From Candidatus Dormibacteria bacterium (GTDB lineage Bacteria > Chloroflexota > Dormibacteria > Aeolococcales > Bog-877): a DNA stretch of 64,000 bases. Where the stretch lies: assembly GCA_050734425.1 (NCBI GenBank), contig JBOHUL010000064.1, positions 16,683 to 80,682 on the forward strand, written 5' to 3'. A program made the translations under genes and the position numbers. Each line of letters starts with the position of its first letter. The stretch's first letter is position 1. Positions 329 through 51,176 of the stretch are shown one piece after another. The notes under the pieces were generated by a model, which had not been told where the DNA came from, made no database searches, and saw nothing but the letters and a program-made list of their open reading frames with translations.

Positions 329-1114
329 CTAACCTCCTGTGCGCTGGCGATCCGGTGGCGGTTCCGAGGCGGCTGGTTCCGGGCCGACCGATGAGGAGTG
401 CCGGTCGTGGCGGAGCTGGGCCAGCTTAGTCTCCACATTGGTGCCGGCGCTGCCCGGGCGGAGCTGGGCGTCGATATCGTCGCCCTCCGAACCCAGGCTG
501 GACCCGATCCCGGAGGCGACCAGCTGCTGGATGGCCTCGGCTCGGGCCTGGAGCTGACGCACGTTGTCCTCGCCCCGTTCCAGCATGAGACGGGTGTCGC
601 CCGAACCCTGGGCCAGCCCGGTCAGGACCTCGCCGGCCTGAACGCTGGCCTGGGCGGCCGCGTACTGGGCCTTGAGGCTGTCGCGCTGGGTGCGGAACGA
701 GTCGACCCGGCCGCTCAGCCGTTGGACAGTCATCGCCAGCTTCTGCTCCTGGCTGCTCAGTGCCTCGATGTGGTGCTCGAGGGCGCGCATTTGGTTCTCC
801 GTCTCGAGGGCCCGAGCCAGCGCCAGCCGGGCCATGTCGTCCCGGCCGCGGATGACCTCCGCCCGGGCCTCCTCCCGGAGGCGCTCCTGGCGCTGGCGCA
901 GCTCACCCGCCTGGAGCTGCAACCTCCGCTCCGAGGTGACCACCTCCGCGACCCCCCTGCGGACTTGGCGGAGCGCCTCCAGCTGCCGGCGATAGGAGAG
1001 GTCGAGCGCGTCGGCGGGATTCTCGGCCTGGTCGAACAGCCGGTCGAGTCGGCGTTGGACCCTTGTGAGCAGGCGCCGCCCCAGAAGCGTGCGCGATGCG
1101 ATCGCGAGCGCCAC
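329..1114 (-). CDS. pspA: PspA/IM30 (phage shock protein A) family protein, paralog 1
   Basis: Coiled-coil protein, LDRLFDQAENPADALDLSYRRQLEALRQVRRGVAEVVTSERRLQ..., colinear with the second PspA paralog in this window. The tool ORF runs to 1366, but the homologous N-terminus begins near an in-frame GTG (1114) or TTG (1144); no ATG is present. Upstream sequence is antisense to an ABC-ATPase remnant. Confidence 0.75.
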   Translation of the reverse strand: MALAIASRTLLGRRLLTRVQRRLDRLFDQAENPADALDLSYRRQLEALRQVRRGVAEVVTSERRLQLQAGELRQRQERLREEARAEVIRGRDDMARLALARALETENQMRALEHHIEALSSQEQKLAMTVQRLSGRVDSFRTQRDSLKAQYAAAQASVQAGEVLTGLAQGSGDTRLMLERGEDNVRQLQARAEAIQQLVASGIGSSLGSEGDDIDAQLRPGSAGTNVETKLAQLRHDRHSSSVGPEPAASEPPPDRQRTGG

Positions 1115-1319
1115 TGCGGCTGCGAGTATCTCCAGACCGAACAAGCCCGCGGGCCTCCAAACCCTTGCACCGAAGCGACCGCCCTGTGGCCGCCATGTTA
1201 ACGTCGCGCTGAGATCGCCGATCCCACGCTCTGACTCGCCGCCATTCCCAGGGGGCGCGACACTCCGGTCGGCTCCAGGGGGAGGCCTTGGCCCCCGCCG
1301 GGGCCAGCGGGTGGCAGGC

Positions 1320-1616
1320 ACGGCTGCTTTTGGCGGCCCCCACACCCTGGTGCTGGACGAAGCCACCTCGATCCTCGACCCTCGCTCCGCCCGGGCACCA
1401 GGAGCGCTTGCCGGGCAAGGCGCTGGAGGGCAGGACGGTGATCAGCGTCTCCCATCGCCGGGGCAGACTGCAGCCGCCGACCTGGTCGTGATGCTCAACG
1501 GGGAGCGGGTGGGTTCGCACCACCAGCTACTGGGGGAAGGCGGCCGCTACGCCGATCTCTGGCGCGCCGACGGAGGGGAGATGGACGACACTTCGGCAGG
1601 GGGAGGCCAACCCTAG
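1320..1616 (+). pseudogene. Remnant of ABC transporter ATP-binding domain C-terminus (Walker B and H-loop), frameshifted
   Basis: One frame reads ...HTLVLDEATSILD... (Walker B) and ...LNGERVGSHHQLLGEGGRYADLW (typical ABC exporter C-terminus). A second frame (1288..1491) carries GRTVISVSHRRG (H-loop). No N-terminal half is present. Confidence 0.4.
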
Positions 1617-1666
1617 CCGTGCCTCTGCCGCGCGTGGGCAGGACCCAAACGGGTATATAGGGGCGT

Positions 1667-2590
1667 ATGCATCGCAAGCTGGGCGCCGACATCGGGCTCA
1701 CCGCCCGAATGTTCTTGGCCCTGTTCCTCCTGGGGGTTCTCTATCTCGCCTTCATAGGGGTGCTCTTGCTCCTCCGGGTGGACATCGCCGTGATCGTCGT
1801 GGTGGTCGCGGTGCTGCTGGTGGCCCAGTACTTCTACTCCGACAAGCTGGTCTTGAACAGCCTCCACGCCCACCTGGTGACGGCCTCGCAGCAGCCACAG
1901 CTGTTCGACATTGTCGGCCGCCTCTGCCAGATCACCGGGATGCCGATGCCCCAGATCGCGGTCATCCCCTCGCCGGTGCCCAACGCGCTGGCAACTGGGC
2001 GCAATCCCAAGCACTCGGTGGTGGCGGTCACGACCGGCATCCTCAACCAGCTGGAGCCCCAAGAGCTGGAGGCGGTGATCGCGCACGAGCTGAGTCACGT
2101 GATCCACAAAGACGTGAAGGTCATGGCCATGGCCAGCTTCTTCGCGACGGTCGCCTCGCTCCTGGTGCAGTCCGGGCTTTGGTTCGGCATGTTCGGCGGA
2201 TTCGGAGGGATGGGCGGTTATGGTCGCGGCCGTTCCAGCGACGAAGGCGAGGGCATGATCCTCGTGATCTTGGCGGCGGCCGTGGTCTGGGCGGTGAGCT
2301 TCGTTCTGATCCGGGCCCTCTCGCGCTACCGGGAGTACGCGGCTGACCGGGGCTCGGCCATCATCACCCGCGACCCGAGCCAGCTGGCCTCGGCGCTGCA
2401 GAAGATCAGCGGGACCATGACCCGCATCCCGAGCCGCGACCTACGCCAGGTGCAGTCGGCTAACGCCTTGATGATCTTCCCGGCGGTCCACATGGGCAAG
2501 GGCAGCCTGGCGGAGATCTTCTCCACCCACCCCTCCCTGGAGCACCGGCTGCGCCGCCTCAGCCAGCTGGAGCGGGAGATGCTGGGCTAG
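1667..2590 (+). CDS. htpX: Zn-dependent M48 protease HtpX
   Basis: N-terminal TM helices, HELSHV (HEXXH) motif, GRNPKHSVVAVTTGIL, C-terminal ...FSTHPSLEHRL typical of HtpX. Confidence 0.85.
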   Translation: MHRKLGADIGLTARMFLALFLLGVLYLAFIGVLLLLRVDIAVIVVVVAVLLVAQYFYSDKLVLNSLHAHLVTASQQPQLFDIVGRLCQITGMPMPQIAVIPSPVPNALATGRNPKHSVVAVTTGILNQLEPQELEAVIAHELSHVIHKDVKVMAMASFFATVASLLVQSGLWFGMFGGFGGMGGYGRGRSSDEGEGMILVILAAAVVWAVSFVLIRALSRYREYAADRGSAIITRDPSQLASALQKISGTMTRIPSRDLRQVQSANALMIFPAVHMGKGSLAEIFSTHPSLEHRLRRLSQLEREMLG

Positions 2591-2601
2591 GCGGTCCCGC
2601 C

Positions 2602-3177
2602 TTGGGATTCCTCGATTCCCTGATCGGGCGCACCAAACTTCCCAAGTCCAACGAGGACAAGATCTTCGCCATCGGCACGGCCGCGGTCGGCCTGGAGGCG
2701 TCCGCTTCCCTGAGCCCCGCCGGTCGGGTGGGGGTGGTGTTCAAGTCACTGCCCCCGGGCCGCTTCGACCAGCTGATCCAGGACACGGTGCAGATGCTCC
2801 AGATCAAGGACAGCACCAGTCCCGATGACCCCCTCAAGGTCAAGGACGTCAGGGACGAGCTGGGCTACGAGTGGCTGATTGTCGACGGAGACGACTTCGA
2901 CGGCCTGGTCGCCGCGCTCCACGGGGTGGCGCTGGGCTTGGAGGAGGAGGGGCTGGGCGGCTGTCTCTTGGCGGCGGTCTTCCCCTTTCTCCAGCGGGAC
3001 CGGCGGGTCTACTTCATCTACGGCTACAAGCAGGGCACCTTCTACCCCTTCGTCCCCAGCGGCGACCGCCAGCGCGACAACGCCGCCGAACTCGACCTGG
3101 CCACCAGGGCCAAGGAGGACCTGCCCATCGAGCCCAATCTCAGTTCCTGGTTCCCGCTCTGGGGGGTGCCGGTCTAG
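2602..3177 (+). CDS. Hypothetical cytoplasmic protein, possibly PspA-associated, immediately after htpX and convergent with pspA paralog 2
   Basis: 191-aa ORF, 12 bp after htpX; I recognise no domain. Its location between htpX and the second pspA suggests co-function (inference). Confidence 0.45.
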   Translation: MGFLDSLIGRTKLPKSNEDKIFAIGTAAVGLEASASLSPAGRVGVVFKSLPPGRFDQLIQDTVQMLQIKDSTSPDDPLKVKDVRDELGYEWLIVDGDDFDGLVAALHGVALGLEEEGLGGCLLAAVFPFLQRDRRVYFIYGYKQGTFYPFVPSGDRQRDNAAELDLATRAKEDLPIEPNLSSWFPLWGVPV

Positions 3178-3188
3178 ATGGACCGGGG

Positions 3189-4289
3189 TCAGGAGGCCTG
3201 GGCGCTGGCCTCCACGACTGTGCCGCCATCGGACATGAGCTTGGTCGCCTCCTCCAGGGTCATGTCCTCTGAGGGCAGGACCACGTCGGAGGGCAGCAGC
3301 GAATCGTTGGGCAGCTTGCTGCCGTGGGCGCGGACGAAGTTGAGCATGGCGCCGAGGGCGCCGGTGTAGGCACCCTGGTCCTGGGAGTCGATCGCCTTGC
3401 CCAGGGCGTTGTCCAAGGGCTCCAACTGGGGGCGCTCCGCGATGCTGAGCCGGTATTGGTCCTCGCCTGAGATCCGAACCACCACGCTCGGGGCGCCGCC
3501 GTTGCCGGCTGGGGCCTGGGGGCTGGCCGCCTGGCTCTCTTCGGCGGCCGATTGGTTGGAGGAGGCGATCCGAGGTGCCGACTCGGGCGCTCCCAGCACC
3601 TCCTGCTTCAGCGCCGCCAGCTGGGCGTCGACCTGGGAGTCGGTGAGGTGCCCCTGCAGCTGGCGGTCGATGTCGTCGCCGGAGTTCAGCCCGATGGTGT
3701 CCAGGGTGCCGCTGTCCATCAGGGAGTCGATCGCCTGGGAGCGTGCCTGCATCTGCTGGGTCTTGTCCTGGGCCCGCTCGACCATGAGGTTGACGTCGGT
3801 CATCTGCTCCGAGAGGCCGGTCACGGCCTCTCCGATCTGGGTCGAGGCCTTGGCTGCCGAGTACTGGGCCTTGAGGGTCTCGCGCTGGGTCTTGAATGAA
3901 GCGACCTTGGCGGTCAGCTTCTGGGCGGTGACCTCCAGCTTCTGCTCTTGGTCTTTGAGCTGCTGGATCTGAGCCGTCATCGCGTCAGCCTGGGCCTTGG
4001 CATCCTGGGCCCGGGTCAAGGCCAGTCGCGCCAGGTCCTCACGGCCCTGCTGCAGCGCCAGCTTGGCCTGGGTCTGGCACTTGTCCTGCGTCTGCTGCAG
4101 CTGGGCCTGCTGCATCTCAAGGCGCTTCTCCGAAGTCAAAACCGTGGCCACGCTGGCCTTGACCTTGGAGAGAGCCTCCATCTGCTTCTGGTAGGAGAGG
4201 TCCAAGGCATCCATCGGGTTCTCGGCCCGGTCCATGACCTTGTTGGCCTTCTGCTGGAACAGGTCGGACATCCGGCGCATGATGCTCAT
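3189..4289 (-). CDS. pspA: PspA/IM30 family protein, paralog 2, with ~130-aa C-terminal extension
   Basis: MSIMRRMSDLFQQKANKVMDRAENPMDALDLSYQKQMEAL... is a classic PspA N-terminus and coiled coil. AAGGAG RBS lies upstream of the ATG. The C-terminal ~130 aa are non-coiled and of unknown fold. Confidence 0.8.
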   Translation of the reverse strand: MSIMRRMSDLFQQKANKVMDRAENPMDALDLSYQKQMEALSKVKASVATVLTSEKRLEMQQAQLQQTQDKCQTQAKLALQQGREDLARLALTRAQDAKAQADAMTAQIQQLKDQEQKLEVTAQKLTAKVASFKTQRETLKAQYSAAKASTQIGEAVTGLSEQMTDVNLMVERAQDKTQQMQARSQAIDSLMDSGTLDTIGLNSGDDIDRQLQGHLTDSQVDAQLAALKQEVLGAPESAPRIASSNQSAAEESQAASPQAPAGNGGAPSVVVRISGEDQYRLSIAERPQLEPLDNALGKAIDSQDQGAYTGALGAMLNFVRAHGSKLPNDSLLPSDVVLPSEDMTLEEATKLMSDGGTVVEASAQAS

Positions 4290-4404: not shown

Positions 4405-4779
4405 TCACGCGAGACGGCGTCCTTTCATGCCCGGTCGATCCGGCCCTATCAGGACCACATCGGCGGGGTCATCCTCGGAGACAAGCCCTAGCACCAGGAC
4501 GTCGCTGCGATAACCGGCGATCCGGCGTGGCCCGAGGTTGACCGCCGCCAGCACCTCGCGCCCCTCCAGCTCCTCGGGTCGGTAGCGACGGGTCAGCTGG
4601 GCGCTGGACTGCAGCCGCCCGAGCCCCGGGCCGAAGTCGATCTCGAGCTTAATCGCCGGCCGCCGAGCTTCGGGGAAGTGCCGGGCTCGGACCACTACCC
4701 CGCAGCGGATGTCAATTCGTTCCCAGGCCCCGGCGGCGTCGGTCCCTACTGGCTCGTCCGGTCTGTTCATGGGGGCCAC
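4405..4779 (-). CDS. tRNA-binding (EMAP/CsaA-like) domain protein
   Basis: KLEIDFGPGLGRLQSSAQLT...EELEGREVLAAVNLGPRRIAGYRSDVLVLG resembles the CsaA/Trbp111 OB-fold tRNA-binding domain. Confidence 0.5.
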   Translation of the reverse strand: MAPMNRPDEPVGTDAAGAWERIDIRCGVVVRARHFPEARRPAIKLEIDFGPGLGRLQSSAQLTRRYRPEELEGREVLAAVNLGPRRIAGYRSDVLVLGLVSEDDPADVVLIGPDRPGMKGRRLA

Positions 4780-4843
4780 CCCCTCCTGGGTCGTGCTTTG
4801 CAGGGGCCCGGATGTCGATCGGGCCCTCGGTATACTCCGGCGC

Positions 4844-4926
4844 GGGCGGGTACCGAAGTGGTTAAACGGGGCTGACTGTAGATCAGCTGGCTCATGCCTA
4901 CGGGGGTTCGAATCCCTCCCCGCCCA
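4844..4926 (+). tRNA. tRNA-Tyr (anticodon GUA), type II with long variable arm; CCA not encoded
   Basis: Folded by hand: acceptor GGGCGGG/CCCGCCC, D arm, anticodon stem GCUGA/UCAGC with loop CUGUAGA, long variable hairpin GGC-ucau-GCC, T arm GGGGG-UUCGAAU-CCCUC. Coordinates +/-2. Confidence 0.8.
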
Positions 4927-4960
4927 GTGACTGGCGGCCCTACGCGCCTCGGCGCGGAGG

Positions 4961-5080
4961 ATGAGCGTCTACCTCGCCTCGGAGGAGACCGCCCACCTCG
5001 CCGCGATTGCCGAGCGCGAGCGGACGTCCCAGCCAGAGGTCAGTCACCGTGAGGTCCGGCTCCACGACCCGAACACAAGG
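4961..5080 (+). pseudogene. Possible ribbon-helix-helix (CopG/ParD-like) antitoxin-type gene fragment
   Basis: GGAGG RBS 4 nt before the ATG. The N-terminus MSVYLASEETAHLAAIAERERTSQPEVSHREVR fits the RHH pattern (beta strand, then helix A, then G/S turn, then helix B). The ORF then degenerates into low complexity and runs through tRNA-Thr, so it cannot be intact. No toxin partner was found. Confidence 0.25.
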
Positions 5081-5278
5081 GCAACCGCAGCGTCGCGCCC
5101 ATCGACATCGCCGAAGCTCGCGGCGCGTCGATCGCCGGCCTCCGCGACGACGCCTTGCTCGTGGGCCCTGCGGCTGCCACACTGCGGCGCAGCCGGGCCC
5201 CGTCGGATCTCAGTCCAGGGGAGCTGGCGCTCGGCCCCGCCCCGGGCTGGAGGGCGTCTCCATAATGACGCTCGGCAC

Positions 5279-5350
5279 GCCCAGGTAGCTCAGTGGCAGA
5301 GCGCTTCCTTGGTAAGGAAGAGGTCGCGGGTTCAATCCCCGCCCTGGGCT
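5279..5350 (+). tRNA. tRNA-Thr (anticodon GGU); CCA not encoded
   Basis: Hand fold: acceptor GCCCAGG/CCUGGGC, D arm GCUC-AGUGGCA-GAGC, anticodon stem CUUCC/GGAAG with loop UUGGUAA, T arm GCGGG-UUCAAUC-CCCGC. Confidence 0.8.
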
Positions 5351-5465
5351 CTTCTGATCTCAAGGCCACCACTTAGCTGGTAATGATGCACACCGCGACG
5401 TTGTCGGACCCGACCTCGCCGTCATTCGCCAAGAGCGCAGAGTCAGCTGGCGCGGAAACCCGCGC

Positions 5466-5911
5466 CTAGCTGTACCTCCCACGTAGGTTGTTGCCACGAG
5501 TCACTGGAGGGAGCCTGCCAACCGCGGTGTGGGCGCGGTGATAGTTGTAGCGGTGCACCCAGGCGGGGAGCACGCGGGTCCGGCTGCTGTTGCTGATGTA
5601 GGGGCGGAAGTAAGCCCACTCCTCGAGCAGGGGGCGGTTGAAGCGCTCCACGTTGCCGTTCAACTGGGGGTGGTAGCGGGGGGTGAGCAGCTGGCGGATC
5701 CGGAGCTCGGACAGTGCGTGCCGGAAGTCGTTGGAGATCCGGTAGGCCTTGGCGTTGTCGGACATCACCGCCCCCACCTGGATCCCCAGCCCCTGGTAGA
5801 ACTGCTACGCCCGGCGCAGGCAAGCCGCGCACGGGGTTGCTCGCGGTGCGCCTCCACGTAGGCCAGCTGGCGGTGGTCGTCCACGGCGCAGTGCAGGTAG
5901 TCGTAGCCCTG
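5466..5911 (-). mobile_element. IS481-family (rve/DDE) transposase, C-terminal half only, frameshifted; decayed IS
   Basis: Two minus-strand frames: ...GYDYLHCAVDDHRQLAYVEAH... and ...AKAYRISNDF...YHPQLNGNVERFNRPLLEEWAYFRPYISNSSRTRVLPAWVHRYNYHRAHTAVGRLPPVTRGNNLRGRYS match the integrase-core C-terminus of IS481 transposases. N-terminal HTH and the first part of the core are absent. Confidence 0.6.
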
Positions 5912-5977
5912 CCCCGTCGCGTGCGGTACCTGCCCTCGCCCCCGGACCGGACCCGGCCCCACTCCGGGCGCGGCCGA

Positions 5978-6376
5978 GTGGCAAGAACCGGAGCCCTGCT
6001 GCGCCCACTCATCGGGGAGGCGGCCTTCCGGGCCTGCGTCCGCACCCACTGGCTGCTGATCGCCCTGGCCGTGGCGGTGCCTCTGGGCCTGGCGGCGGCG
6101 TTTGCTGCCGCCCTCAGCTCCGGTGCTCTCCGGAGCGTGCTGGCGCTGGTCTGGCTGCTCTGCGCCCTCGCCTGTGTCATCGCCGCCTTCCTAGGTCTCA
6201 TCTGGAGCCGGCGGGCCAACGCCCTCACCAGCGACCGGCTCACCTCGCAGCTGGATACCCGCTTCGGATTCGGGGCGGGGGCGCGAGGCTCGATGTGGCG
6301 TCGTGGAAGCGCCAGATCGATCGGGCGCTGCGCCGCTATCGCCAGACCAACCGTCGCAGATGGCCTCACCAGGTAA
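5978..6376 (+). pseudogene. Small 2-TM membrane protein gene (paralog A), frameshifted; paralogous to 12246..12626
   Basis: GTG-initiated frame reads ...LLRPLIGEAAFRACVRTHW plus two hydrophobic helices. The C-terminal homology (RLDVASWKRQIDRALRRYRQTNRRRW) continues in a different frame (6295..), indicating a frameshift near 6290. The protein-level match to the intact minus-strand paralog is clear. Confidence 0.4.
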
Positions 6377-6529
6377 CGGGGACGGCCAGGCAGATCAGCG
6401 GCGGCCGGGGCAAGCGGGCGCAACCTCGCGCGCGACCCGGCCTGGGCACTTTGGCACATCTCGATCTGTCGTGCTCTGGCGATCCCTGCCCGCCCGCGCT
6501 AACCTGCCCTAGACATTTGAGGTCTGTCT

Positions 6530-9500
6530 TTGATTTGTAGCAATTGTCAGGCGGAGACGACTCCTGGGCGGCGGTTCTGCGGGCAGTGCGGAGCGCCCCT
6601 GGCTCATGCTTGTGCCGCCTGCGGGGCGGCCAACCCGCCGGGGGCGAGGTTCTGCGAAGAGTGCGGCACGTCGCTCCAGCCGGTCCCGGCGGCGACTCCC
6701 GCGCCCGCTGCGGCAGCACCGCCACCGGCGCCTGGCAGCGAGACCATCGAGCTCAGATTCGTCTCGGTCGCGTTCGCCGACCTGGTCGGGTTCACCACCC
6801 TCGCCGAGGGTCGGGACCCGGAGGAGGTCCGCGAGCTCCTGACACGCTATTTTGAAGTCGCCAGGGAGCTGGTCAGCCGTTACGGGGGGACGGTGGAGAA
6901 GTTCATCGGGGACGCGGTCATGGCGGTCTGGGGAACCCCCACCGCCCAGGAGGACGATGCCGAGCGCGCGGTCCGCGCCTCCCTGGACCTGGTCGAGGCG
7001 GTCGGCCAGCTGGGGCTGCAGATGGGCTTGCCCGGGCTCTCGGCCCGAGCGGGGGTGCTCAGCGGCACGGCTGCCGTGACCGTCGGGGCCAGGGGCCAGG
7101 GGATGGTAGCCGGGGACCTGGTCAACACCGCCTCGCGGATCCAGGGCCAGGGTGCACCGGGACAGGTCCTGGTCGGGGAGACCACCAAGCGGGCTACCGA
7201 GGCGGCGATCGCCTACCAGGAGCTGGGGACGAAGAGCCTCAAGGGCAAGGGCGAGCCGACCGCGCTCTTCCAGGCGCTGCGGGTGGTGGCGGGGCTCGGA
7301 GGGATGCTCAAGTCGCAGCGCCTGGAAGCCCCTTTCGTGGGCCGTGAACGAGAGCTCCGCCTGGTCAAGGAGGTCTTCCACACCTCGACCGAGGAGCGCC
7401 GCGCCCACCTGGTGCAGGTGACTGGGGTGGCCGGGATCGGCAAGTCCCGGCTCGGTTGGGAGTTCTTCAAGTACATCGACGGGCTCCAGTCCGGCTACCT
7501 GTGGCATCGGGGCCGCTGCCTGGCCTACGGCCAGGGCATCACCTACTTCGCGCTCGCCGAGATGGTGCGCGGGCGGCTCGGGATCGTGGAGCAGGACCCG
7601 CCCGAGGTCGAGCAGGCCAAGCTCACCGCGACCCTGGAGCAGTACCTCCACGACGCCGACGACCGCGCCTTCGTCGCTCCCCGCTTGGCCCACTTGATCG
7701 GGTTGGCGGAGCGAACCGCCCCCGACCAGCAGGATCTCTTCGCCGCCTGGCGGCTCTTCTTCGAACGCATGGCCGAGGACAGCCCGGTGGTTCTGGTCTT
7801 CGAGGACATGCAGTGGGCGGACTCGGCCCTGCTGGAGTTCATCACCTACCTGATGGAGTGGTCCCGGAACTTCCCCCTGTTCGTCATGAGCCTGGTCCGC
7901 CCTGAGACGGCTCAGGCGGGCCTCGGGGCAAGCACTCGAAACGCCACCCTGATCCACCTGGAGCCGCTGTCCCCCGGGGCGATGGAGCAACTGCTCACGG
8001 GACTGGTCCCGGGCATCCCCCGCCTTCTGGCGGAGCGGATCCAGCAGCGGGCCCAGGGCGTGCCCCTCTATGCGGTGGAGACGGTGCGGATGCTCCTCGA
8101 CCGGGGCTTGCTGGTCGAAGACGGAGCCGCCTACCGGCCGACGGCCGAAATCGAGACGCTGGAGGTCCCGGACACTCTCCAGGCGCTGATCCTGGCCCGG
8201 CTCGACGGGATGGAGCCCGCGGAGAGACAACTGGTCCAGGAGGCTTCCGTGCTGGGTAAAACCTTCACCCTCGAGACCCTGGCCCGACTCTCGGGCGACA
8301 CCCACCAGGTAGTTGGGGCGGTGCTGCATGCGCTGGTGGCCAAGGAGGTCCTGGCGATCCAGAGCGATCCCCGCTCTCCCGAGCGGGGCCGCTACGGCTT
8401 TCTCCAGGACCTGGTGCGGACGGTCGCCTACGAGACACTCTCCAAGCGGGATCGGCGGTCCAAGCACCTGGCGGTGGCGACCGTCCTGGAGGCTGCCGCC
8501 GGCGACTCCGAGGATCTGGTCGAGGAGCTGGCCTCGCACTATCTGCAGGCCTGGCGCCTGGACCCGGACTCTGACGACGGCGGCGAGATCCGAAGGAAGG
8601 CCCGACGGCTTCTGGTCCGAACCGCCGAGCGGGCCGCCCAGCGGGCGGCGGTCGATGAGGCCCACGCCGCCTTCCAACGGGCCTCAGAACTGAGCGAGTC
8701 GCCGCTGGAGCGCGGTGCCCTGACTGAGCGGGCGGGGCAGATGGCGGAGCAGAGCGGCCAGCTGGACGAGGCGGACCAGCTCTACGAGGAGGCGACGCGG
8801 CTGCTCAAGGAGGGAGGCGACCACCGCGGGGCCGCCAGAGCCCAGGCGCGGCTGGCGGGGTCGGAGTACCAGCGGCTGCAGGTGGAGCAGGCGACCAAGC
8901 GAATGCAGCATGCGTACGCGGAGATGGCGACAGACGATCCCGACCCCGACGTCGCCGTGGTCACGGCCCAGCTCGGTCGCTTCCTGGCGCTTCAGGGCGA
9001 TGCCGAAAAGGCAGCACCGCTGCTGGAGCGAGCCCTGCACCTGGCGGAGCTGCTGGAGCTGCCTGACGTCTACTCTCAGGCCTTGAGCAGCAAGGCGGTC
9101 GTTCTCATGGGCCAAGACCGGATGGACGAGGCAGTGGTGCTCCTGCGGCGGGCCCTAGAGGTGGCCCTGGAGCACAGCCTCACCTTGGCCGCCAACCGCG
9201 CCTACAACAACCTGGGAACGGTGCTGGAGGCCCAGGAGCGCTACTCGGAGTTGGTCACCATGCTCACCCAGCAACTTGAGTTCGCCCGTAGGGTCGGCGA
9301 CCGCCCCTGGGAGCTCAGCACCCTGCTGGCCCATGTGACACCGTTGATGGGGCTCGGGCAATGGGACGAGGCCGTGGCCATGGTCGCGGAGGCCCGGGCG
9401 ACCGAACTGCCCTTGGTGGCATTCGCATGGAGCCAACTGGTGAGCCTGGTTAGCCTCCACTGCCACAGGGGCGAACTGGACGAGGCCGAGAGGGTTTTGG

Positions 9501-10078
9501 AGGCGACGCGATCTGCCGCGGAGGCCGACGAGTGGCAGTCCCGCCTGGCCTATTCCGCGGAGAGGGGTGTCGCCCTGCGCGCCCACGGTCGGATCGAGGA
9601 GGCGCTGATGGCGGCGGAAGGGGTCCTGGCGAGCAAGAGCAAAGTGGGCATGGGGATTACCAATCCGATCTTGAAAAGGGCGCTGGTGCTGGCCGGCGAC
9701 TGTGCCATCGACCTTGCAGACCCCGACCGCGCATCAAGGATCCTGGCAACCGCCCGCGACGCCCTGCCAGGCCAGGTCACCCCTTGGCTGAGGGGTCATC
9801 TGGCCAGGCTCTCGGCCAGGGAGTGCGCCCTGCATGGCGACACCCAGCAGGTGGAGCCGCTGTTCACAGCGGCGGAAGCCGGGTTCGGGGCCATCGACGA
9901 CCCCTTCGACCTGGCGGCTACCCGGGTCGAGCATGCCGAGTGGTTGGTCGAGCAGGCAAGGTCAGACGAGGCCCTCCAGCTCCTCGCCGAAGCACGCACG
10001 ACCCTGGAGCGTCTGGGCGCCCAGCCGTGGCTGGAAAGAGTCAGGCAGATCAGGATCGAAGAACGCCTACCCGCGTGA
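6530..10078 (+). CDS. Multidomain signalling protein: N-terminal double zinc ribbon, class III adenylate/guanylate cyclase catalytic domain, STAND/AAA NTPase (P-loop GVAGIGKS), C-terminal TPR-like helical repeats; no HTH
   Basis: CSNCQ...CGQCG...CAACG...CEECG (four CxxC). Cyclase motifs FADLVGFT, FIGDAVMAVWG, GDLVNTASRIQ (metal Asp pair plus Asn/Arg transition-state residues). Walker A VTGVAGIGKSRL, Walker B-like VLVFEDMQWAD. About 600 aa of alpha-helical repeats. TTG start in a locally AT-rich patch. Confidence 0.8.
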   Translation: MICSNCQAETTPGRRFCGQCGAPLAHACAACGAANPPGARFCEECGTSLQPVPAATPAPAAAAPPPAPGSETIELRFVSVAFADLVGFTTLAEGRDPEEVRELLTRYFEVARELVSRYGGTVEKFIGDAVMAVWGTPTAQEDDAERAVRASLDLVEAVGQLGLQMGLPGLSARAGVLSGTAAVTVGARGQGMVAGDLVNTASRIQGQGAPGQVLVGETTKRATEAAIAYQELGTKSLKGKGEPTALFQALRVVAGLGGMLKSQRLEAPFVGRERELRLVKEVFHTSTEERRAHLVQVTGVAGIGKSRLGWEFFKYIDGLQSGYLWHRGRCLAYGQGITYFALAEMVRGRLGIVEQDPPEVEQAKLTATLEQYLHDADDRAFVAPRLAHLIGLAERTAPDQQDLFAAWRLFFERMAEDSPVVLVFEDMQWADSALLEFITYLMEWSRNFPLFVMSLVRPETAQAGLGASTRNATLIHLEPLSPGAMEQLLTGLVPGIPRLLAERIQQRAQGVPLYAVETVRMLLDRGLLVEDGAAYRPTAEIETLEVPDTLQALILARLDGMEPAERQLVQEASVLGKTFTLETLARLSGDTHQVVGAVLHALVAKEVLAIQSDPRSPERGRYGFLQDLVRTVAYETLSKRDRRSKHLAVATVLEAAAGDSEDLVEELASHYLQAWRLDPDSDDGGEIRRKARRLLVRTAERAAQRAAVDEAHAAFQRASELSESPLERGALTERAGQMAEQSGQLDEADQLYEEATRLLKEGGDHRGAARAQARLAGSEYQRLQVEQATKRMQHAYAEMATDDPDPDVAVVTAQLGRFLALQGDAEKAAPLLERALHLAELLELPDVYSQALSSKAVVLMGQDRMDEAVVLLRRALEVALEHSLTLAANRAYNNLGTVLEAQERYSELVTMLTQQLEFARRVGDRPWELSTLLAHVTPLMGLGQWDEAVAMVAEARATELPLVAFAWSQLVSLVSLHCHRGELDEAERVLEATRSAAEADEWQSRLAYSAERGVALRAHGRIEEALMAAEGVLASKSKVGMGITNPILKRALVLAGDCAIDLADPDRASRILATARDALPGQVTPWLRGHLARLSARECALHGDTQQVEPLFTAAEAGFGAIDDPFDLAATRVEHAEWLVEQARSDEALQLLAEARTTLERLGAQPWLERVRQIRIEERLPA

Positions 10079-10381
10079 GGGCGACGCCCTCCGCAGGCTG
10101 GGCCTCCCGGCCGGGCAGGCGCGCAGTGTCGGCGAGTTTGAGCCAGCGACCACGCGCCCGGGCCTACGGCGCCGCCCCGGATACCGTAGCTAGGCTCAAT
10201 CCCCCCTACACTTGCGGGGCAATGTGCTAGCGCTCTGCTGAAGGCGATCAAGGCCGGCCGTCGACTCTCCCCAGAGGTCGGCGCTGAGCCCGACCCGGTC
10301 GACGGAGTCGACCGAACCGCTATCGCCCCGCAGAGCCAGTCAGGTGGAGTCTTCGCCTCCGCCCTTATCGGGAGAGGTACA

Positions 10382-11620
10382 TTGCCAGCGCGCGCGCGTC
10401 CCAGCGATCTGACCTTGATCGTGCTCGCCTGCCTGTCCAGCGAGGCGAGCGGTGGGATCGCCGCCCTGGCCCTGGTGCTCCGGCTCAGCCAGACTGGCTC
10501 GAGCTGGGCGGTGGCCGGACTCTGGCTGGCGGGCACGGTCCCGGCAGTCGCGCTTGCCCCACTGATCGGGCTGCTTCTGGACCGGGTCGAGACGGTCGGG
10601 CTCCTGCGCAATCTCGCGATCGCCTCCGCCGTCCTCGTTGTGGGCCTGGCGGTGGTGCCCGGGGTGCTTCCCGTGCTGGCCCTGGCCGCCCTCCTGGGGA
10701 TCGCCGCCGCCACCACCGCGCCGGGCCTGCTGGCGATTGCCCCGGTGGTAGGAGGGGGCGCCGGCCCAGCCCGTTCCATGACCAGAATCCAGGCGGCACA
10801 GTGGGCGGGGTCGACGGTGGGTCCCGCAGTGGGCGCAGGTCTGGTCGTGGCTTGGGGTACCCGGATCCCACTTCTCCTCGACGCCGCATCCCTCCTGCTT
10901 CTGGTTGTGGCGCTCACGGCCGTCCGGGCGCGACGCTTGCCCACTCACCGCCCGTCGGGCGAGACCCGGACCAAGGCGATCACGGCTGGGCTGGCGATCC
11001 TCGCGGGCAATCGCGGTCTGCGCCGGCTACTGCCCCCAGTGCTCCTCGTGATCACCTTCGTCAACGTGGCGGTGGTGGTGGAGGTGTTCCTGGCCACCCA
11101 GGTATTCCGCGCCGGCCCCTGGGGCTACGGAGGTCTGGTGGCCCTTTGGGGCGGGGGGCTGGTGCTGGGAACCCTGACCGTGCCCCGGCTCGCGCGCCTC
11201 AACCCACTGCTGGTCGCCGGCGCGGGCGCCGGACTGGCGGCCCTGGGACTGGCCGGCGCTGGGCTCAGCCCCGGGCTCCCACCTGCCCTGCTCGCCTATC
11301 TGCTGGGCGGCTTTGGAAACGGGCTGGAGATGAACTCGGTGAGGATCATGGTTCAGAAAGTGGCGCCTGCGGCGACCCACGGACGCGCCTTCGCAGCCTA
11401 CTTCGCCCTGGGCAGCGGCGCAGCCGCGGTGGGATCAGGGTTGGGTGGCGGTCTCCTCGGAGTCTTCGCCGTCCGTCCGGCCATGCTGGTCGCGTCGCTG
11501 GCAGTGGCAATCGCCGCAATCTGGCTGCTGGCAGCGTCGTCCCTGTGGGCCGGGCTGCCCCTGCAGTCTGACTTCCCCGCAGAGGCCCTCGGTGTTCGAC
11601 TCCCGACCAATGGCAGTTGA
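10382..11620 (+). CDS. MFS transporter (EntS/MFS_1-like, ~12 TM)
   Basis: Hydrophobic 12-helix pattern with DRxE-like motif LLLDRVETVG after TM2. True start may lie downstream of 10382. Confidence 0.65.
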   Translation: MPARARPSDLTLIVLACLSSEASGGIAALALVLRLSQTGSSWAVAGLWLAGTVPAVALAPLIGLLLDRVETVGLLRNLAIASAVLVVGLAVVPGVLPVLALAALLGIAAATTAPGLLAIAPVVGGGAGPARSMTRIQAAQWAGSTVGPAVGAGLVVAWGTRIPLLLDAASLLLLVVALTAVRARRLPTHRPSGETRTKAITAGLAILAGNRGLRRLLPPVLLVITFVNVAVVVEVFLATQVFRAGPWGYGGLVALWGGGLVLGTLTVPRLARLNPLLVAGAGAGLAALGLAGAGLSPGLPPALLAYLLGGFGNGLEMNSVRIMVQKVAPAATHGRAFAAYFALGSGAAAVGSGLGGGLLGVFAVRPAMLVASLAVAIAAIWLLAASSLWAGLPLQSDFPAEALGVRLPTNGS

Positions 11621-11737
11621 GCGCCGCCTGCAAGGCCGAATGCTAGTACTGCGAGCCGAAAGCAGCTCGCCGGCTCCGAGGCCCCGGCCTAAGCTCGATT
11701 CGACGCCTCGCACGAGACAACTCATCTACGGGGTGCT

Positions 11738-11800
11738 GCAGCTAGCTGTACTTCCCACGTAGGTTGTTGACGCGACTCACTGGAGGGAGGCGTTCGTAGA
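11738..11800 (-). mobile_element. Solo terminal fragment (~60 bp: last transposase codons plus end) of the same IS481-family element as 5461..5515
   Basis: agctagctgtacTtcccacgtaggttgttgAcGcgaCtcactggagggag is ~90% identical over ~50 bp to 5463..5512. The short ORF 11742..11927 ends ...LPPVSRVNNLRGKYS, compared with ...LPPVTRGNNLRGRYS in the first copy. Confidence 0.5.
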
Positions 11801-11845
11801 CCAGGTAAAAGTCGGCCGGAGGAGGCCGCGACCAGGAGGGTTGCT

Positions 11846-12184
11846 GTGGCACGGTACCTGATCTCGTTCGACGACGGTGCGATGACCTTCCCCGAGGAGG
11901 ATCTGGCCGACGTGGACAAGGCCGCACACGGGGTGGTCCAGGAGGCCAAGGATGCGGGCGTATGGGTCTTCGGCGCCGGGCTAGAAAGTCAACGGGCCAG
12001 CGTCATTGCCACCGACGGGAGGGTCTCCGACGGCCCATACCCGGAGACCAAGGCGGTCCTCGGCGGCTTCGCCATCGTCGAGGTGCCCTCACGCGAGGAG
12101 GCGTGAGGGTGGGCCCCGACGATCGCCGTCGCCTGCCGCTGTGCGCAAGAGGTACGGGAGCTCCTGCACGACCGGACCGTGTGA
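11846..12184 (+). pseudogene. YciI-like (YCII-related) protein gene interrupted by an in-frame TGA at 12104..12106
   Basis: MARYLISFDDG...AGVWVFGAGLESQRASVIATDGRVSDGPYPETKAVLGGFAIVEVPSREEA matches the YciI family. After the TGA the same frame continues GWAPTIAVACRCAQEVRELL... to a stop at 12182..12184. That gives the normal ~112-aa length and a family-like C-terminus; a single nt change (TTG/CTG to TGA) would explain it. Confidence 0.45.
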
Positions 12185-12245
12185 TCGAAGGAGACCCGCA
12201 CCGCTGGAGTAACAGTTGCCAAGGCCGCGGGTTGGGCATGCAGCC

Positions 12246-12626
12246 TCAGCTCCAGTCCTGGAGTCGCCCACGGTTTCGCTCGAGCGCCTGATCGATGCGC
12301 CGCTTCCAGGTGGCGACGTCCAGCCGGGCCCGGCCACCGCGGACCACTAGTTGACGGCCGAGCCGGAGGCTGGCGGCCTGGCTGGCGAGTGCGTCGGCGC
12401 CGCGGGCACAGCCCCAGAGCACCACGATGGCGACGAGGGCGTAGAGGCAGCAGAGGGCCCAGAGCACGAGCAGCCCCGGACGGGCGGCCGACGGCGAGAA
12501 GGCCGCCACCAGGACCGCGGCCAGCCCCACGATCAGGCAAGGGATCAGGAGGCCGAGGCAGCGGTTGGCGCGGACGCAGCGGCGATAGGCCGCCTCGCCG
12601 ATCAACGGAACCAGCAGCGGACGCAC
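12246..12626 (-). CDS. Small 2-TM membrane protein (paralog B, intact), unknown function
   Basis: MRPLLVPLIGEAAYRRCVRANRCLGLLIPCLIVGLAAVLVAAF...DVATWKRRIDQALERNRGRLQDWS; paralogous to the frameshifted copy at 5978..6376. Confidence 0.5.
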   Translation of the reverse strand: MRPLLVPLIGEAAYRRCVRANRCLGLLIPCLIVGLAAVLVAAFSPSAARPGLLVLWALCCLYALVAIVVLWGCARGADALASQAASLRLGRQLVVRGGRARLDVATWKRRIDQALERNRGRLQDWS

Positions 12627-12801
12627 CCGCGCAGCCCGGCCCCGGGGCCGCCGTCGGGCCGATGAGGGGGGGTGATCTGGGGAGGGCAGAGCCTACGCTC
12701 GAAGTTGGGGACGACGCGGCGCACGGCTGACCATCTGTGAAAGTCTAGGCCCGGTTCGGCACCCCCGGTGGGGCGGATCCGGCGGGATTCGGGGCCTGGG
12801 T

Positions 12802-12830
12802 TTGACCCGCGTCCCGCGGGGGGATATACT
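12802..12830 (+). promoter_or_regulatory. Sigma-A type promoter candidate for rpmG (and possibly tRNA-Trp–secE–nusG): TTGACC-N17-TATACT
   Basis: TTGACC (12802-12807), 17-nt spacer, TATACT (12825-12830), ~50 nt upstream of the rpmG TTG start. A GC hairpin followed by a U-run lies in the leader. Confidence 0.4.
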
Positions 12831-12878
12831 CAGCCTGCTCGGCTCGCGGCCGGGCGTTTTTATTCTGGAGACTGGAAC

Positions 12879-13031
12879 TTGCCCGCGACCATCATCACCC
12901 TGCAGTGCAGTCAGTGCCAGGAGCGCAACTACACCACTCAAAAGAACAAGCGCAACGACCCCGACCGGTTGGAACTGAAGAAGTATTGCCGTCGCTGCCG
13001 TCGGCACACGGCGCACCGCGAGACCAAGTAG
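12879..13031 (+). CDS. rpmG: 50S ribosomal protein L33 (zinc-ribbon C4 form)
   Basis: TTG start with GGAG 8 nt upstream. ...[47 protein letters not shown]. The tool ORF (12768..) has a spurious N-terminal extension. Confidence 0.75.
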
Positions 13032-13051
13032 AGGCTTCCACCGAGACTCAA

Positions 13052-13124
13052 AGGGGCGTAGCTCAGCTGGTAGAGCAGCGGTCTCCAAAACCGCAGGTCG
13101 CGCGTTCGAACCGTGCCGCCCCTG
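13052..13124 (+). tRNA. tRNA-Trp (anticodon CCA)
   Basis: Hand fold: acceptor AGGGGCG/CGCCCCU, D arm GCUC-AGCUGGUA-GAGC, anticodon stem GCGGU/ACCGC with loop CUCCAAA, T arm GCGCG-UUCGAAC-CGUGC. It occupies the conserved position before secE. Confidence 0.8.
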
Positions 13125-13157
13125 CAGTCAGATGGGGAGAGCGCAAAGGAGTTGGAT

Positions 13158-13508
13158 TTGGCGAACGTCGCCCGGGGGGAGAGGTCCGAGGGGAGCGAGG
13201 GCAACTACCTCCAGGAGGTCTACGGCGAGTTGCGCAAGACCGTCTGGCCCACCTGGCCGGAGCTGCGCCAGATGACCGGCGTGGTGGTGGTGACGGTGGT
13301 GCTGCTGGGCGTCTTCCTCGGCCTCCTGGGATTTGGTCTCACGACGCTCTTCAAGCCCCTCTACACCACAGCCCCGGCCGCGGCCACCACGCCGGCCCCG
13401 GCCACGGTCACCCCGACTCCCACCGCCACGCCGACCCCGTCGGCCTCGGCCAGCGCCAGCCCCAGTGCGGGGGCCTCACCCAGCCCTTCGGCCACCACCA
13501 GTCCCTAG
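13158..13508 (+). CDS. secE: Preprotein translocase subunit SecE, with a Pro/Thr/Ala-rich C-terminal tail
   Basis: NYLQEVYGELRKTVWPTWPELRQMTGVVVVTVVLLGVFLGLLGFGL is the SecE signature plus a single TM helix. Probable TTG start at 13158 after an AAGGAG RBS. The tool ORF start (13113) overlaps tRNA-Trp. Confidence 0.7.
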   Translation: MANVARGERSEGSEGNYLQEVYGELRKTVWPTWPELRQMTGVVVVTVVLLGVFLGLLGFGLTTLFKPLYTTAPAAATTPAPATVTPTPTATPTPSASASASPSAGASPSPSATTSP

Positions 13509-19500: not shown

Positions 19501-20121
19501 TGGGCGGCTAAGGCCCTGGGGCTGAAGGTCGCTACGCCGGTGTTCGACGGCGCCTCCGAGGCCCAGATCGAAGACGAGCTGGAGCGGGCGGGTCTGCCGC
19601 GAGACGGCAAGGTCTGGCTCCGTGACGGCCGCTCAGGGGAGACCTTCGACCAGCCGGTGACGGTGGGGATCATCTACATGATGAAGCTGGCCCACCTGGT
19701 GGAGGACAAGATCCACGCCCGCAGCACCGGGCCCTACAGCCTGGTCACCCAGCAGCCGCTGGGAGGGAAGGCCCAGTTCGGCGGGCAGCGGTTCGGTGAG
19801 ATGGAGGTCTGGGCCCTGGAGGCCTACGGCGCCAGCCACATCCTCCAGGAAATCCTGACCATCAAGTCGGACGACATCGTCGGTCGGGTCAAGGCCTACG
19901 AGGCCATCGTCAAGGGCGACAACACCCTGGATGCCAGCATCCCCGAGTCTTTCCGGGTCCTGGTCAAGGAGCTGGAAGGGCTGGCGCTCGGGGTCGAGAT
20001 CATGTCCGAGAACGAGGAGCAGATCGTATTCACAGAGGACGACATGCCCGACATGCCGCTGAGCCTCGGAATCAACCTGGAGCGCGACGAGCGCGACGAC
20101 GCCGAGGACATCAGCAGGTAG
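16552..20121 (+). CDS. rpoB: DNA-directed RNA polymerase subunit beta
   Basis: Full-length RpoB homology. Likely start at the in-frame ATG 16591 (MPSFPAAL...). Confidence 0.95.
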
Positions 20122-39927: not shown

Positions 39928-40625
39928 GGGTCGACCAGGTCCAGCGGGCCGCGGGCAGCCGGCGCCCGCGCAAGCGGGTCGGGCGCGGGATCGCCGCCGG
40001 AGGCGGGAAGACCGCGGGCCGGGGGCAAAAGGGCCAGGGGGCGCGCAGCTCCTGGAGCCTGCCCCGCTCCTTCGAGGGCGGCCAGATGCCCCTGACCCAG
40101 CGGGTCCCCAAGTTGCGGGGATTCCACAACCACTTCCGGATCGAGTATCAGGTCGTCAACTGTGGCAAGCTGCGCCGCTTTCAGGCGGGCGAGGTCGTCG
40201 ACCCTGAACGCCTGCGTCAGGCGGGGCTGATCCAGCACGCGGACCGTCCGGTCAAACTTCTGGCTGGCGGCGGCGCACCGCCGGCGGTGTCGGTGCGGGT
40301 CCAGCGCAGCTCCAAGGCAGCCCTTGCGGCGCTGACCGCGGCGGGGGGCGCGTTGGAGTTGCTGCCAACGGCCGCCGCAGCGGCGGAGGCCGCGGCAGGA
40401 TCTGCCACTGCGCCTGCGAGCCGGGCCGAGGCGGTCCCGCCCCAGGCGGAGCCGGCGCGGGAGGAGCCTCAGCTGGTCAGTGAGGCCCCGGCCCGGCTCA
40501 CTGTCAAGCGCGCGCCCAGGAAGACCAAGGCGTCCGGGCCGAAGGCGGCGGCGGCGGCTCCGGAAGGCACGCCCGGGTCCACGGCGGATGGGGTCGGCAG
40601 CGGAGGGCAGGAAACCTCGCCATGA
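39924..40625 (+). CDS. rplO: 50S ribosomal protein L15 (with ~85-aa Ala-rich C-terminal extension)
   Basis: L15 core (~146 aa), then ...[31 protein letters not shown]... Confidence 0.85.
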
Positions 40626-51093: not shown

Positions 51094-51176
51094 GCCACAG
51101 GCTCGTAACTCCTTCGCCAGGCGCGGCGTTGAAGCTGGCTGGAGGGCTCACTGAAGTGGGAGGCAGGTAGACCGCA

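Follow-up and report, generated by a model that had tools for sequence, protein, structure and literature searches.

The window analysed here, a 64,000-nucleotide stretch of Candidatus Dormibacteria DNA, contains a complete gene for a putative nucleotidyl cyclase (6530..10078, + strand, stop codon included). According to the list of open reading frames (ORFs) and its translation, the gene begins with TTG and encodes 1182 amino acids, in which a double zinc ribbon, a class III cyclase domain, a STAND NTPase and an array of tetratricopeptide repeats (TPRs) follow one another. It sits in a 7.7-kb interval between tRNA-Thr and tRNA-Trp, within a window of core chromosome. With a probability of about 0.68, we read the protein as a chromosomal, vertically inherited class III adenylate cyclase under the control of a STAND ATPase switch that carries its TPR sensor at the C-terminus. 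The family to which it belongs is known by sequence but experimentally unexplored.

Domain anatomy and catalytic residues

The order of zinc ribbon, cyclase, STAND NTPase and TPR array, which a sequence-only reading of this DNA had proposed, was borne out by Pfam and by an AlphaFold2 model (a monomer built on 35 homologs, mean pLDDT 80.3). Residues 1-50 (6530..6679, +) form the double zinc ribbon (Pfam DZR at 3-46, E 4.8e-11; Zn_Ribbon_1, E 2.4e-11), whose eight cysteines are arranged in four CxxC pairs (C3/C6, C17/C20, C28/C31 and C42/C45). An Ala/Pro-rich disordered linker at residues 51-71 (6680..6742, +; pLDDT below 50 for 51-69, 17% mean identity among homologs) leads to the class III nucleotidyl cyclase domain at residues 72-252 (6743..7285, +), on which Pfam, PDB sequence matches and Foldseek agree. 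Guanylate_cyc (PF00211) covers residues 78-244 and profile positions 9-177 of 183 (80 bits versus a 21.9-bit cutoff, E 2.2e-22), the PDB sequence matches include 2W01 (the best, E 4.7e-23) and 3R5G (E 1.6e-18), and Foldseek aligns the domain with CyaB, CyaC and Cya2 at TM scores of 0.76-0.87 and 29-31% identity.

A second linker, residues 253-268 in the model, precedes the STAND nucleotide-binding oligomerisation module at residues ~271-610 (7340..8359, +). This module was assigned from AAA_16 (residues 268-443, 77.5 bits versus a 32.6-bit cutoff, E 2.2e-21), the model, a match to the structure 6MFV and invariant Walker residues. The model contains an alpha/beta P-loop nucleotide-binding domain (NBD) at 273-480 and a helical and beta-hairpin winged-helix domain (WHD) part at 482-604, and both Walker A (G299-S306) and Walker B (E425/D426) are invariant in the 35 aligned homologs. 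The rest of the protein is a TPR-like helical repeat sensor array (residues 623-1173; 8396..10048, +), which is recognised by Pfam TPR families across 735-1028 (TPR_12, 67.1 bits versus a cutoff of 30.1, E 1.5e-18; TPR_7, 37.5 versus 27.9; TPR_MalT scores 25.5 bits, under its 45-bit cutoff). In the model, ~28 regular helices of ~17 residues run from 623 to 1173 with pLDDT mostly 85-95, reaching the protein end and therefore leaving no space for a LuxR-type helix-turn-helix (HTH). Pfam found no HTH or GerE family on the whole protein at E<0.1, and the C-terminal 200 residues searched alone matched only TPR families, even at E<=10. A cryptic C-terminal HTH is excluded by these searches together with the structure model.

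Mean identity across homologs is 72% in the cyclase domain, 70% in the NBD, 66% in the WHD, 59% in the first part of the TPR array (623-900) and 43% in the second (901-1173), values that are high for a sensor protein. The sequence-only reading had singled out the zinc ribbon as a distinguishing novelty, a view that does not survive comparison with the homologs: 79 of 83 family genes carry the complete set of four CxxC motifs in frame, and seven of the eight cysteines are invariant in 28 sequences with an annotated N-terminus, with C45 present in 28 of 29. Judged from these sequences, the ribbon is a constant accessory in the subfamily and probably serves for contact with a protein or nucleic acid, or for localisation.

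Alignment with solved cyclases (2W01, 3R5G, 6SIR and 5OYH) places D84 (in FADLVGFT) and D128 (in IGDAVMAV) on the two metal-binding Asp, R173 on the phosphate-binding Arg, and N199/R203 (in NTASR) on the transition-state pair. All five residues sit in a single chain, as a homodimeric cyclase needs, and are invariant in the 35 aligned homologs, which upholds the earlier impression of an intact catalytic site. We defined a family residue signature, D-K-D-R-M-N-R-K, from seven cyclase residues and the Walker A Lys. Of 88 family genes extracted from the homologous loci, 87 have intact catalytic residues, K124 and Walker A Lys, the lone exception to the signature being a minus-strand motif match in locus L038 that is probably no family member. 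On this alignment, the enzyme is very probably active as a cyclase.

The same comparison, which the sequence-only reading had proposed for the specificity residues, yields an adenine-type residue at the first position, K124, and a non-canonical one at the second, M192. The query reads veKfIGDA ... qgMvaGDlvNTASR, wild-type rhodopsin guanylate cyclase (RhGC, 6SIR) reads kvEtIGDA ... hwCLVGDTVNTASR, and the ATP-converted RhGC mutant (5OYH) reads kvKtIGDA ... hwDLVGDTVNTASR; likewise, the Glu of Cya2 (2W01) is Lys in the adenylate-type variant 6FHT. Because the pairs 6SIR/5OYH and 2W01/6FHT fix the specificity positions, K124 can be assigned by alignment as an adenine-type specificity residue. 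The second position holds Met here, Cys in 6SIR, Asp in 5OYH, Thr in CyaB (3R5G) and Gly in Cya2 (2W01). Met at this site is neither adenylate-type nor guanylate-type, and the Lys/Met pair was not seen in the characterised cyclases compared. The product is thus probably cyclic AMP (cAMP), but the conserved Met leaves real uncertainty on strict specificity.

The family and its closest relatives

A homolog search returned at least 8000 proteins at E<=1e-10. The best 120 of these share 53-66% identity with the query, come mostly from Candidatus Dormibacterota and are mostly annotated as adenylate/guanylate cyclase domain-containing proteins, AAA family ATPases or similar; GerE/LuxR (PF00196) occurs in none of the 120. 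A scan of one genome per species gave more than 551 confirmed loci, the best 80 of which match from query residue 1-3 to ~1170-1182, with identities of 56-66% in Dormibacterota and 49-53% in Actinomycetota (including Gaiellales, Thermoleophilia, Acidimicrobiia and Solirubrobacterales). HMMER on 1.84 billion representatives clustered at 50% identity found 18,461 proteins at E<=1e-30, and the best 150 of these, all from separate clusters and all below 1e-182, are mostly 1150-1200 residues long and colinear over their full length. The family is at home in Dormibacterota and deep-branching Actinomycetota, phyla of the soil that have hardly been studied by experiment, and we found no paper linking Dormibacterota with adenylate cyclases.

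The described protein type with the same order of cyclase, AAA_16/MalT-type NTPase and repeats is Rv0386 of M. tuberculosis (also Rv1358 and Rv2488c), which consists of a class IIIc cyclase, a MalT-like ATPase, TPRs and a LuxR HTH and has 1085 residues versus 1182 here. The window protein differs in its lack of the LuxR HTH, in its N-terminal double zinc ribbon, which is not described for Rv0386, and in its Lys/Met pair, for which Gln/Asn is reported in Rv0386 (a literature value; Rv0386 was not aligned). The cyclase-LuxR form is reported to be monophyletic, to comprise 15 proteins and to be confined to Mycobacterium (PMC3466318), whereas the form found in the window spans Dormibacterota and several Actinomycetota classes. 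Because the HTH-bearing type is reported only from Mycobacterium, while the HTH-less zinc-ribbon form is abundant, the Rv0386 type is the narrow exception and the HTH-less zinc-ribbon form the common form of a very large family. The sequence-only reading was therefore right that the protein lacks an HTH, but not that such a domain would be usual.

For residues 258-1182, a PDB sequence search gave only weak generic TPR matches (LGN/Pins, kinesin light chain), and it was the fold search that revealed PH0952 of Pyrococcus (6MFV) as the top Foldseek match for residues ~270-1000 (E 1.8e-14), with a shared core of NBD, helical domain and WHD and a shared TPR sensor. Sequence identity is only 15%, and the part of the effector, played by a DNA-binding domain in PH0952 and MalT, falls here to an N-terminal cyclase and zinc ribbon. 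The best NCBIfam match is the TOMM kinase/cyclase fusion (TIGR03903), whose profile positions 315-1116 align with residues 101-899 over cyclase, NTPase and repeats, also without an HTH. The score, however, is 215.9 bits against a cutoff of 705.75, the kinase part is absent (no Pkinase in Pfam) and no TOMM biosynthesis genes lie nearby. With CyaB (3R5G), CyaC (1WC0) and Cya2 (2W01), the cyclase domain shares the fold, both metal Asp, the phosphate Arg and the Asn/Arg pair, but those enzymes are stand-alone or regulated by other domains, and CyaB and Cya2 differ at the second specificity site. We assign the protein to PF00211 and to the AAA_16/TPR STAND class, but not to the Rv0386-type fusions of cyclase homology domain (CHD) and LuxR, nor to TIGR03903, Avs, Pycsar or Pucsar.

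Several genomes carry more than one copy. The complete 2.49-Mb Dormibacterota chromosome OY969577.1 has three, and ten loci hold two to three complete head-to-tail copies, all with an intact catalytic and Walker A signature. Such an arrangement suggests co-expressed paralogs with different sensors, or hetero-oligomers. A C1/C2-like heterodimer formed by tandem copies was considered and rejected, as every tandem copy keeps the full catalytic set. Tandem arrays of three copies lie in loci L033, L059 and L063, and arrays of two in L022, L036, L049, L060, L066 and L073, often with gaps of only tens of nucleotides between the copies. In the window itself, a 1189-aa ORF at 16552-20121 that was considered as a paralog proved to be rpoB.

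Start site and chromosomal setting

A Shine-Dalgarno-like GAGG (6519..6522, +) lies 7 nt 5' of the TTG start, and homologs carry GGAGG/GAAGGAG-type motifs at comparable spacing from their starts. The TTG aligns exactly with the V/M-I-C-S-N-C start of the homologs, and most ribbon-bearing family genes begin with GTG or TTG. The NCBI protein P0001 (1131 aa; locus L001, 10001-13396) matches the window protein exactly but begins 51 codons later, which leaves out window positions 6530-6682 and with them the entire double zinc ribbon. Since the four CxxC motifs are in frame in nearly all family genes, as given above, we read the apparently DZR-less database entries of 1107-1131 aa, including the NCBI model of this gene, as start-site miscalls. 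Public gene models of the zinc-ribbon cyclase family often start too late and drop the ribbon.

The start lies in an AT-rich patch (6500..6552, +; GC about 0.37) that spans the ribosome-binding site, the TTG codon and the first 7 codons and is specific to this copy. The AT-rich 40-mer at the gene start has a GC of 0.375, a value equally low in only 4 of ~64,000 40-nt windows. Codons 2-7 are ATT TGT AGC AAT TGT CAG, with rare A/T-ending synonyms in four of them. In 78 homolog starts, by contrast, mean GC is 0.64 and never 0.45 or less, and the same N-terminal peptide is encoded by G/C-ending codons. The anomaly noticed from the sequence alone is thus real and statistically unusual, but the foreign origin or strong promoter that had been offered for it is not supported: the rest of the gene is native in composition, and a promoter search over 5300-13200 found no sigma-70-like promoter at the patch or near the cyclase gene. 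The patch is a local peculiarity of this copy, just downstream of a stretch scarred by insertion sequences (ISs). One possible cause is selection that keeps the mRNA free of structure around a weak TTG start.

The sole sigma-70-like match in the searched region lies at 12802-12856 (TTGACC, 17-nt spacer, TATACT), ~200 nt 5' of tRNA-Trp, and is directly followed by a terminator-like hairpin and T-run. Terminator signals around the cyclase gene were discarded, as nearby matches fall only within its coding sequence (7740-7754) and their count is about that of chance. Rfam over 4500-13500 gave only three tRNAs and no structured RNA or riboswitch 5' of the gene. The sole other stretch of the window with a 40-nt GC of 40% or less is 41592-41631, within a 450-aa ORF (40622-41974) in the ribosomal-operon region.

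The left flank of the interval comprises a PspA/M48/PspAB/PspA-PspAA cluster, a tRNA-binding protein gene, tRNA-Tyr (4844-4926; ARAGORN) and tRNA-Thr(GGT) (5279..5351, +; ARAGORN; Rfam tRNA, 72.5 bits), which forms the left boundary of the variable interval. The right boundary is tRNA-Trp(CCA) (13052..13125, +; ARAGORN and Rfam), which is followed by secE, nusG, rplKAJL and rpoBC, then by the str/S10/spc ribosomal operons, rplM, cdaA-ybbR-glmS, alr, thiE and tsaD. Directly downstream of tRNA-Thr lies a decayed IS transposase fragment with an rve_3 integrase core (5466..5777, -; Pfam rve_3, E 6.5e-14, and source annotation). A second remnant (11742..11789, -) preserves the last 16 codons of the same transposase 3' end as a 48-nt, 92% direct repeat of 5466-5513, recovered both as a repeat family (D2, find_repeats) and by blastn (E 7e-14). 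The remnants are thus the scars that two copies of a single IS family left behind. Two small proteins, paralogous to each other, predicted to lie in the membrane and without a Pfam family, orf5978 (5978-6376, +) and orf12246 (12246-12626, -; 43% identity, E 7e-14), flank the cyclase-MFS-YCII block in inverted orientation. A 338-aa ORF on the minus strand (5443-6459) was considered as an integrase and rejected: it has no Pfam match and low GC at third codon positions (GC3) and is probably spurious, and the real features at this place are the rve_3 fragment and orf5978.

The interval shows no compositional anomaly (GC 0.66-0.75 in 300-nt windows), and the cyclase gene has a GC3 of 0.87. Foreign origin by composition was therefore rejected, as neither GC nor GC3 departs from the norm in gene or interval and the AT-rich patch measures only ~50 nt and is absent from homologs. 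In loci L004 and L005 (64% identity), a family member lies ~6 kb from tRNA-Trp-secE-nusG-rplKA, and in L015 (61% identity) tRNA-Thr/tRNA-Tyr, the gene for the tRNA-binding protein and the psp cluster are ~2.3 kb away from one. The genes beside these copies are ordinary metabolic ones. Copies in the same neighbourhood thus occur in three other Dormibacterota species, with an orientation to the flanks that differs between genomes. Overall identity of the cyclase to its Dormibacterota relatives is 62-67%, and the flanking proteins range from 66% (the tRNA-binding protein) and 67% (PspAB) to 91% (nusG). A neighbour-joining tree places the window protein as sister of the entire Dormibacterota clade, which holds the syntenic copies as well as within-genome paralogs, a pattern that fits vertical inheritance with later duplications. 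The interval between tRNA-Thr and tRNA-Trp was remodelled in this genome, and the cyclase itself looks resident. Of the earlier proposal that the gene lies inside an insertion, the IS-scarred and rearranged interval remains, while native composition, branching with Dormibacterota and the same-neighbourhood copies speak against an inserted cyclase.

Neighbouring genes vary among the relatives. A pyridine-nucleotide-disulfide oxidoreductase (~490 aa) adjoins the cyclase homolog in five Dormibacterota loci with varying orientation (L004, 8158-9639; L005, 8413-9906; L007, 3735-5231; L009, 4010-5458; L015, 3752-5212), which may reflect a functional link specific to the lineage or nothing more than synteny. 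A GtrA-like gene is common to several Dormibacterota loci, and L004, L005, L007 and L009 have an orf12246 homolog close to the cyclase. None of the oxidoreductase, HhH-GPD and GtrA neighbours occurs anywhere in the 64-kb window. A conserved partnership with an MFS transporter was considered, as MFS genes neighbour the cyclase here and in L002, L006 and L018, but it was dropped because the window MFS gene has no tblastn match in the other loci.

Proposed switch mechanism and its alternatives

In class III cyclases, the two active sites arise only where two cyclase domains meet in a dimer. Induced proximity of N-terminal cyclase domains would therefore be a natural output for a module that oligomerises. 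At rest, the NTPase module would hold ADP and be closed, monomeric and autoinhibited, stabilised by contacts with the TPR array. Binding of a conserved cellular ligand or partner protein to the TPR sensor would then open the module, and ADP would be exchanged for ATP before the protein oligomerises. Oligomerisation would bring the N-terminal cyclase domains together as active homodimers that convert ATP to cAMP, and this diffusible product might be read by receptors encoded elsewhere in the genome. From the component families we infer that the enzyme is active, which product it makes, that oligomerisation gates it and what kind of ligand it responds to. In PH0952 and MalT, the closed ADP-bound resting form is autoinhibited by contacts of the NBD with the arm and the sensor, and an inducer on the TPR sensor opens the protein, which leads to nucleotide exchange, multimerisation and a switched-on effector domain (PMC6468293). 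This analogy supports the notion, already voiced from the sequence alone, of a cyclase that a ligand or partner activates, as the NTPase-repeat module is closest to PH0952 and thus to a family of inducer-triggered switches. If the mechanism is true, dimerisation-dependent cyclase catalysis would be joined to inducer-driven STAND oligomerisation, and the protein could become a tractable model of an NLR-like switch that drives a second-messenger enzyme instead of a nuclease or transcription factor.

Several points weigh against a vertically inherited adenylate cyclase of this kind. The structure model is a monomer and silent on oligomerisation, biochemical data on any zinc-ribbon subfamily member were not found in the searched literature, and no conserved neighbour in 71 loci hints at a ligand. 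Characterised adenylate cyclases have Asp or Thr where 83 of 88 family genes have Met (M192), so that the product could differ or be mixed. The two IS remnants lie in direct orientation and bracket orf5978, the cyclase gene and the MFS gene, which makes some mobility of the segment possible. Finally, cyclases fused to NACHT/AP-ATPase STANDs have been predicted to form a fast-evolving immune clade 1 with long branches (preprint 10.64898/2026.08.12.744502). This last point belongs to a wider alternative, which the sequence-only reading had entertained: an NLR/Avs-like antiphage or conflict sensor, in which the TPR array would sense an invader protein, the STAND module would oligomerise and a cyclic nucleoside monophosphate (cNMP) alarm would trigger a toxic effector in trans, similar to Pycsar or Pucsar. 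We regard this as improbable. An N-terminal enzyme followed by a STAND NTPase and C-terminal repeats is the Avs layout, with the same logic of effector, switch and repeat sensor, and Avs3 (8DGC) is among the Foldseek matches (E 1e-9); its alignment is poor, however (rmsd 28 Å, TM 0.10-0.16), and surpassed by that of PH0952, no Avs NTPase or sensor profile matches, Pfam finds no NACHT or NB-ARC at E<0.1, and the NTPase scores as AAA_16. Cyclases making cNMPs act as effectors in other NTP-dependent conflict systems (PMC7159879), and PADLOC PycC models match the cyclase domain (best PDLC00734, 60.5 bits, E 3.7e-17, residues 73-205); this score lies below the generic Pfam cyclase match and is expected from the class III ancestry and fold shared with PycC. 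Apart from the PycC models, PADLOC gives one generic TPR model on the protein, no Avs/NLR model, and no match for the six immediate neighbours. Pycsar and Pucsar combine a cyclase with an adjacent cNMP-binding effector, TIR or transmembrane, and no such neighbour exists in the window. Nor does a gene for a cNMP-binding protein, TIR protein, transmembrane effector, nuclease or protease recur among the neighbour clusters inspected (all-against-all clustering of 496 neighbour proteins from the 71 loci), in which the single dominant recurrent neighbour is another family copy (17 loci, loose clustering) and the other recurrent ones are metabolic or transport genes. The occurrence of multiple, tandem copies within single genomes, the IS remnants flanking the gene in this genome and the high variability of the sensor end (43% identity) would suit a conflict role, but composition is native, chromosomal position is kept across species, there is no defence island, and the family evolves slowly, with a cyclase domain that retains 72% identity over two phyla, unlike the long branches of immune cyclases, and an identity to relatives (62-67%) comparable to that of flanking housekeeping proteins. 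The 71 neighbourhoods are largely housekeeping contexts, with amino-acid biosynthesis, oxidoreductases, transporters and ribosomal operons, a setting that the sequence-only reading itself had named as speaking against a conflict role. We give still less credence to a chromosomal, effector-less NLR-like surveillance family, kin to Pycsar/Pucsar and to the cyclase-STAND immune clade, that would sense an intracellular or invader protein and act through a cNMP in trans; in a milder version of this idea, tandem copies would form hetero-oligomeric cAMP 'signalosomes' with distinct TPR sensors.

Two further alternatives concern the output of the protein. The same architecture and switch could deliver a product that is not cAMP or not only cAMP, such as cyclic GMP or another cNMP, which we consider unlikely, although the Met conserved at the second specificity site points this way. 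The best PDB sequence match, Cya2 (2W01), is an entry titled guanylyl cyclase, and Rv0386, whose Gln/Asn pair is non-canonical, reportedly works as an adenylate as well as a guanylate cyclase; the adenine-selecting K124, however, is present in 87 of 88 family genes, an exchange of Glu for Lys at this position is part of the conversion of a guanylate into an adenylate cyclase, and the guanylate-type Glu, Cys and Gly are absent from the specificity positions. The protein might also be a regulator in the style of MalT or Rv0386, with the double zinc ribbon as a DNA- or RNA-binding output in place of the HTH and the cyclase as an accessory. This is highly improbable: zinc ribbons are common among nucleic-acid-binding proteins, and the ribbon of one homolog (P0108) is labelled ribosomal protein L40E-like, yet DZR has no established nucleic-acid-binding role, and neither Pfam nor the model revealed a DNA-binding domain. 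Its NTPase-TPR kin MalT, PH0952 and Rv0386 are predicted or proven transcription factors, but the strict conservation of the catalytic set argues that cyclase activity is the selected output. The gene adjoins a transcription and translation gene cluster, but proximity to secE-nusG is found in only part of the family, and most loci lie elsewhere.

Other features of the window stand beside the proposed cAMP switch as observations in their own right. The conserved psp cluster at 329-4289 (also in L015, 6721-10375) consists of two PspA/IM30 genes, one of them PspAA-fused, PspAB and an M48 peptidase gene, and is adjoined by the putative tRNA-binding protein gene (4405-4779). At 49199-53009, genes for a DAC-domain diadenylate cyclase, a protein with a YbbR domain and a GlmS-like protein lie in a row and form a c-di-AMP synthase cluster, which represents a second nucleotide-messenger system in the same window. 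The following ORF (53006-54289) combines a 4'-phosphopantetheinyl transferase (ACPS) and an NAD(P)H-hydrate dehydratase (Carb_kinase) in one protein.

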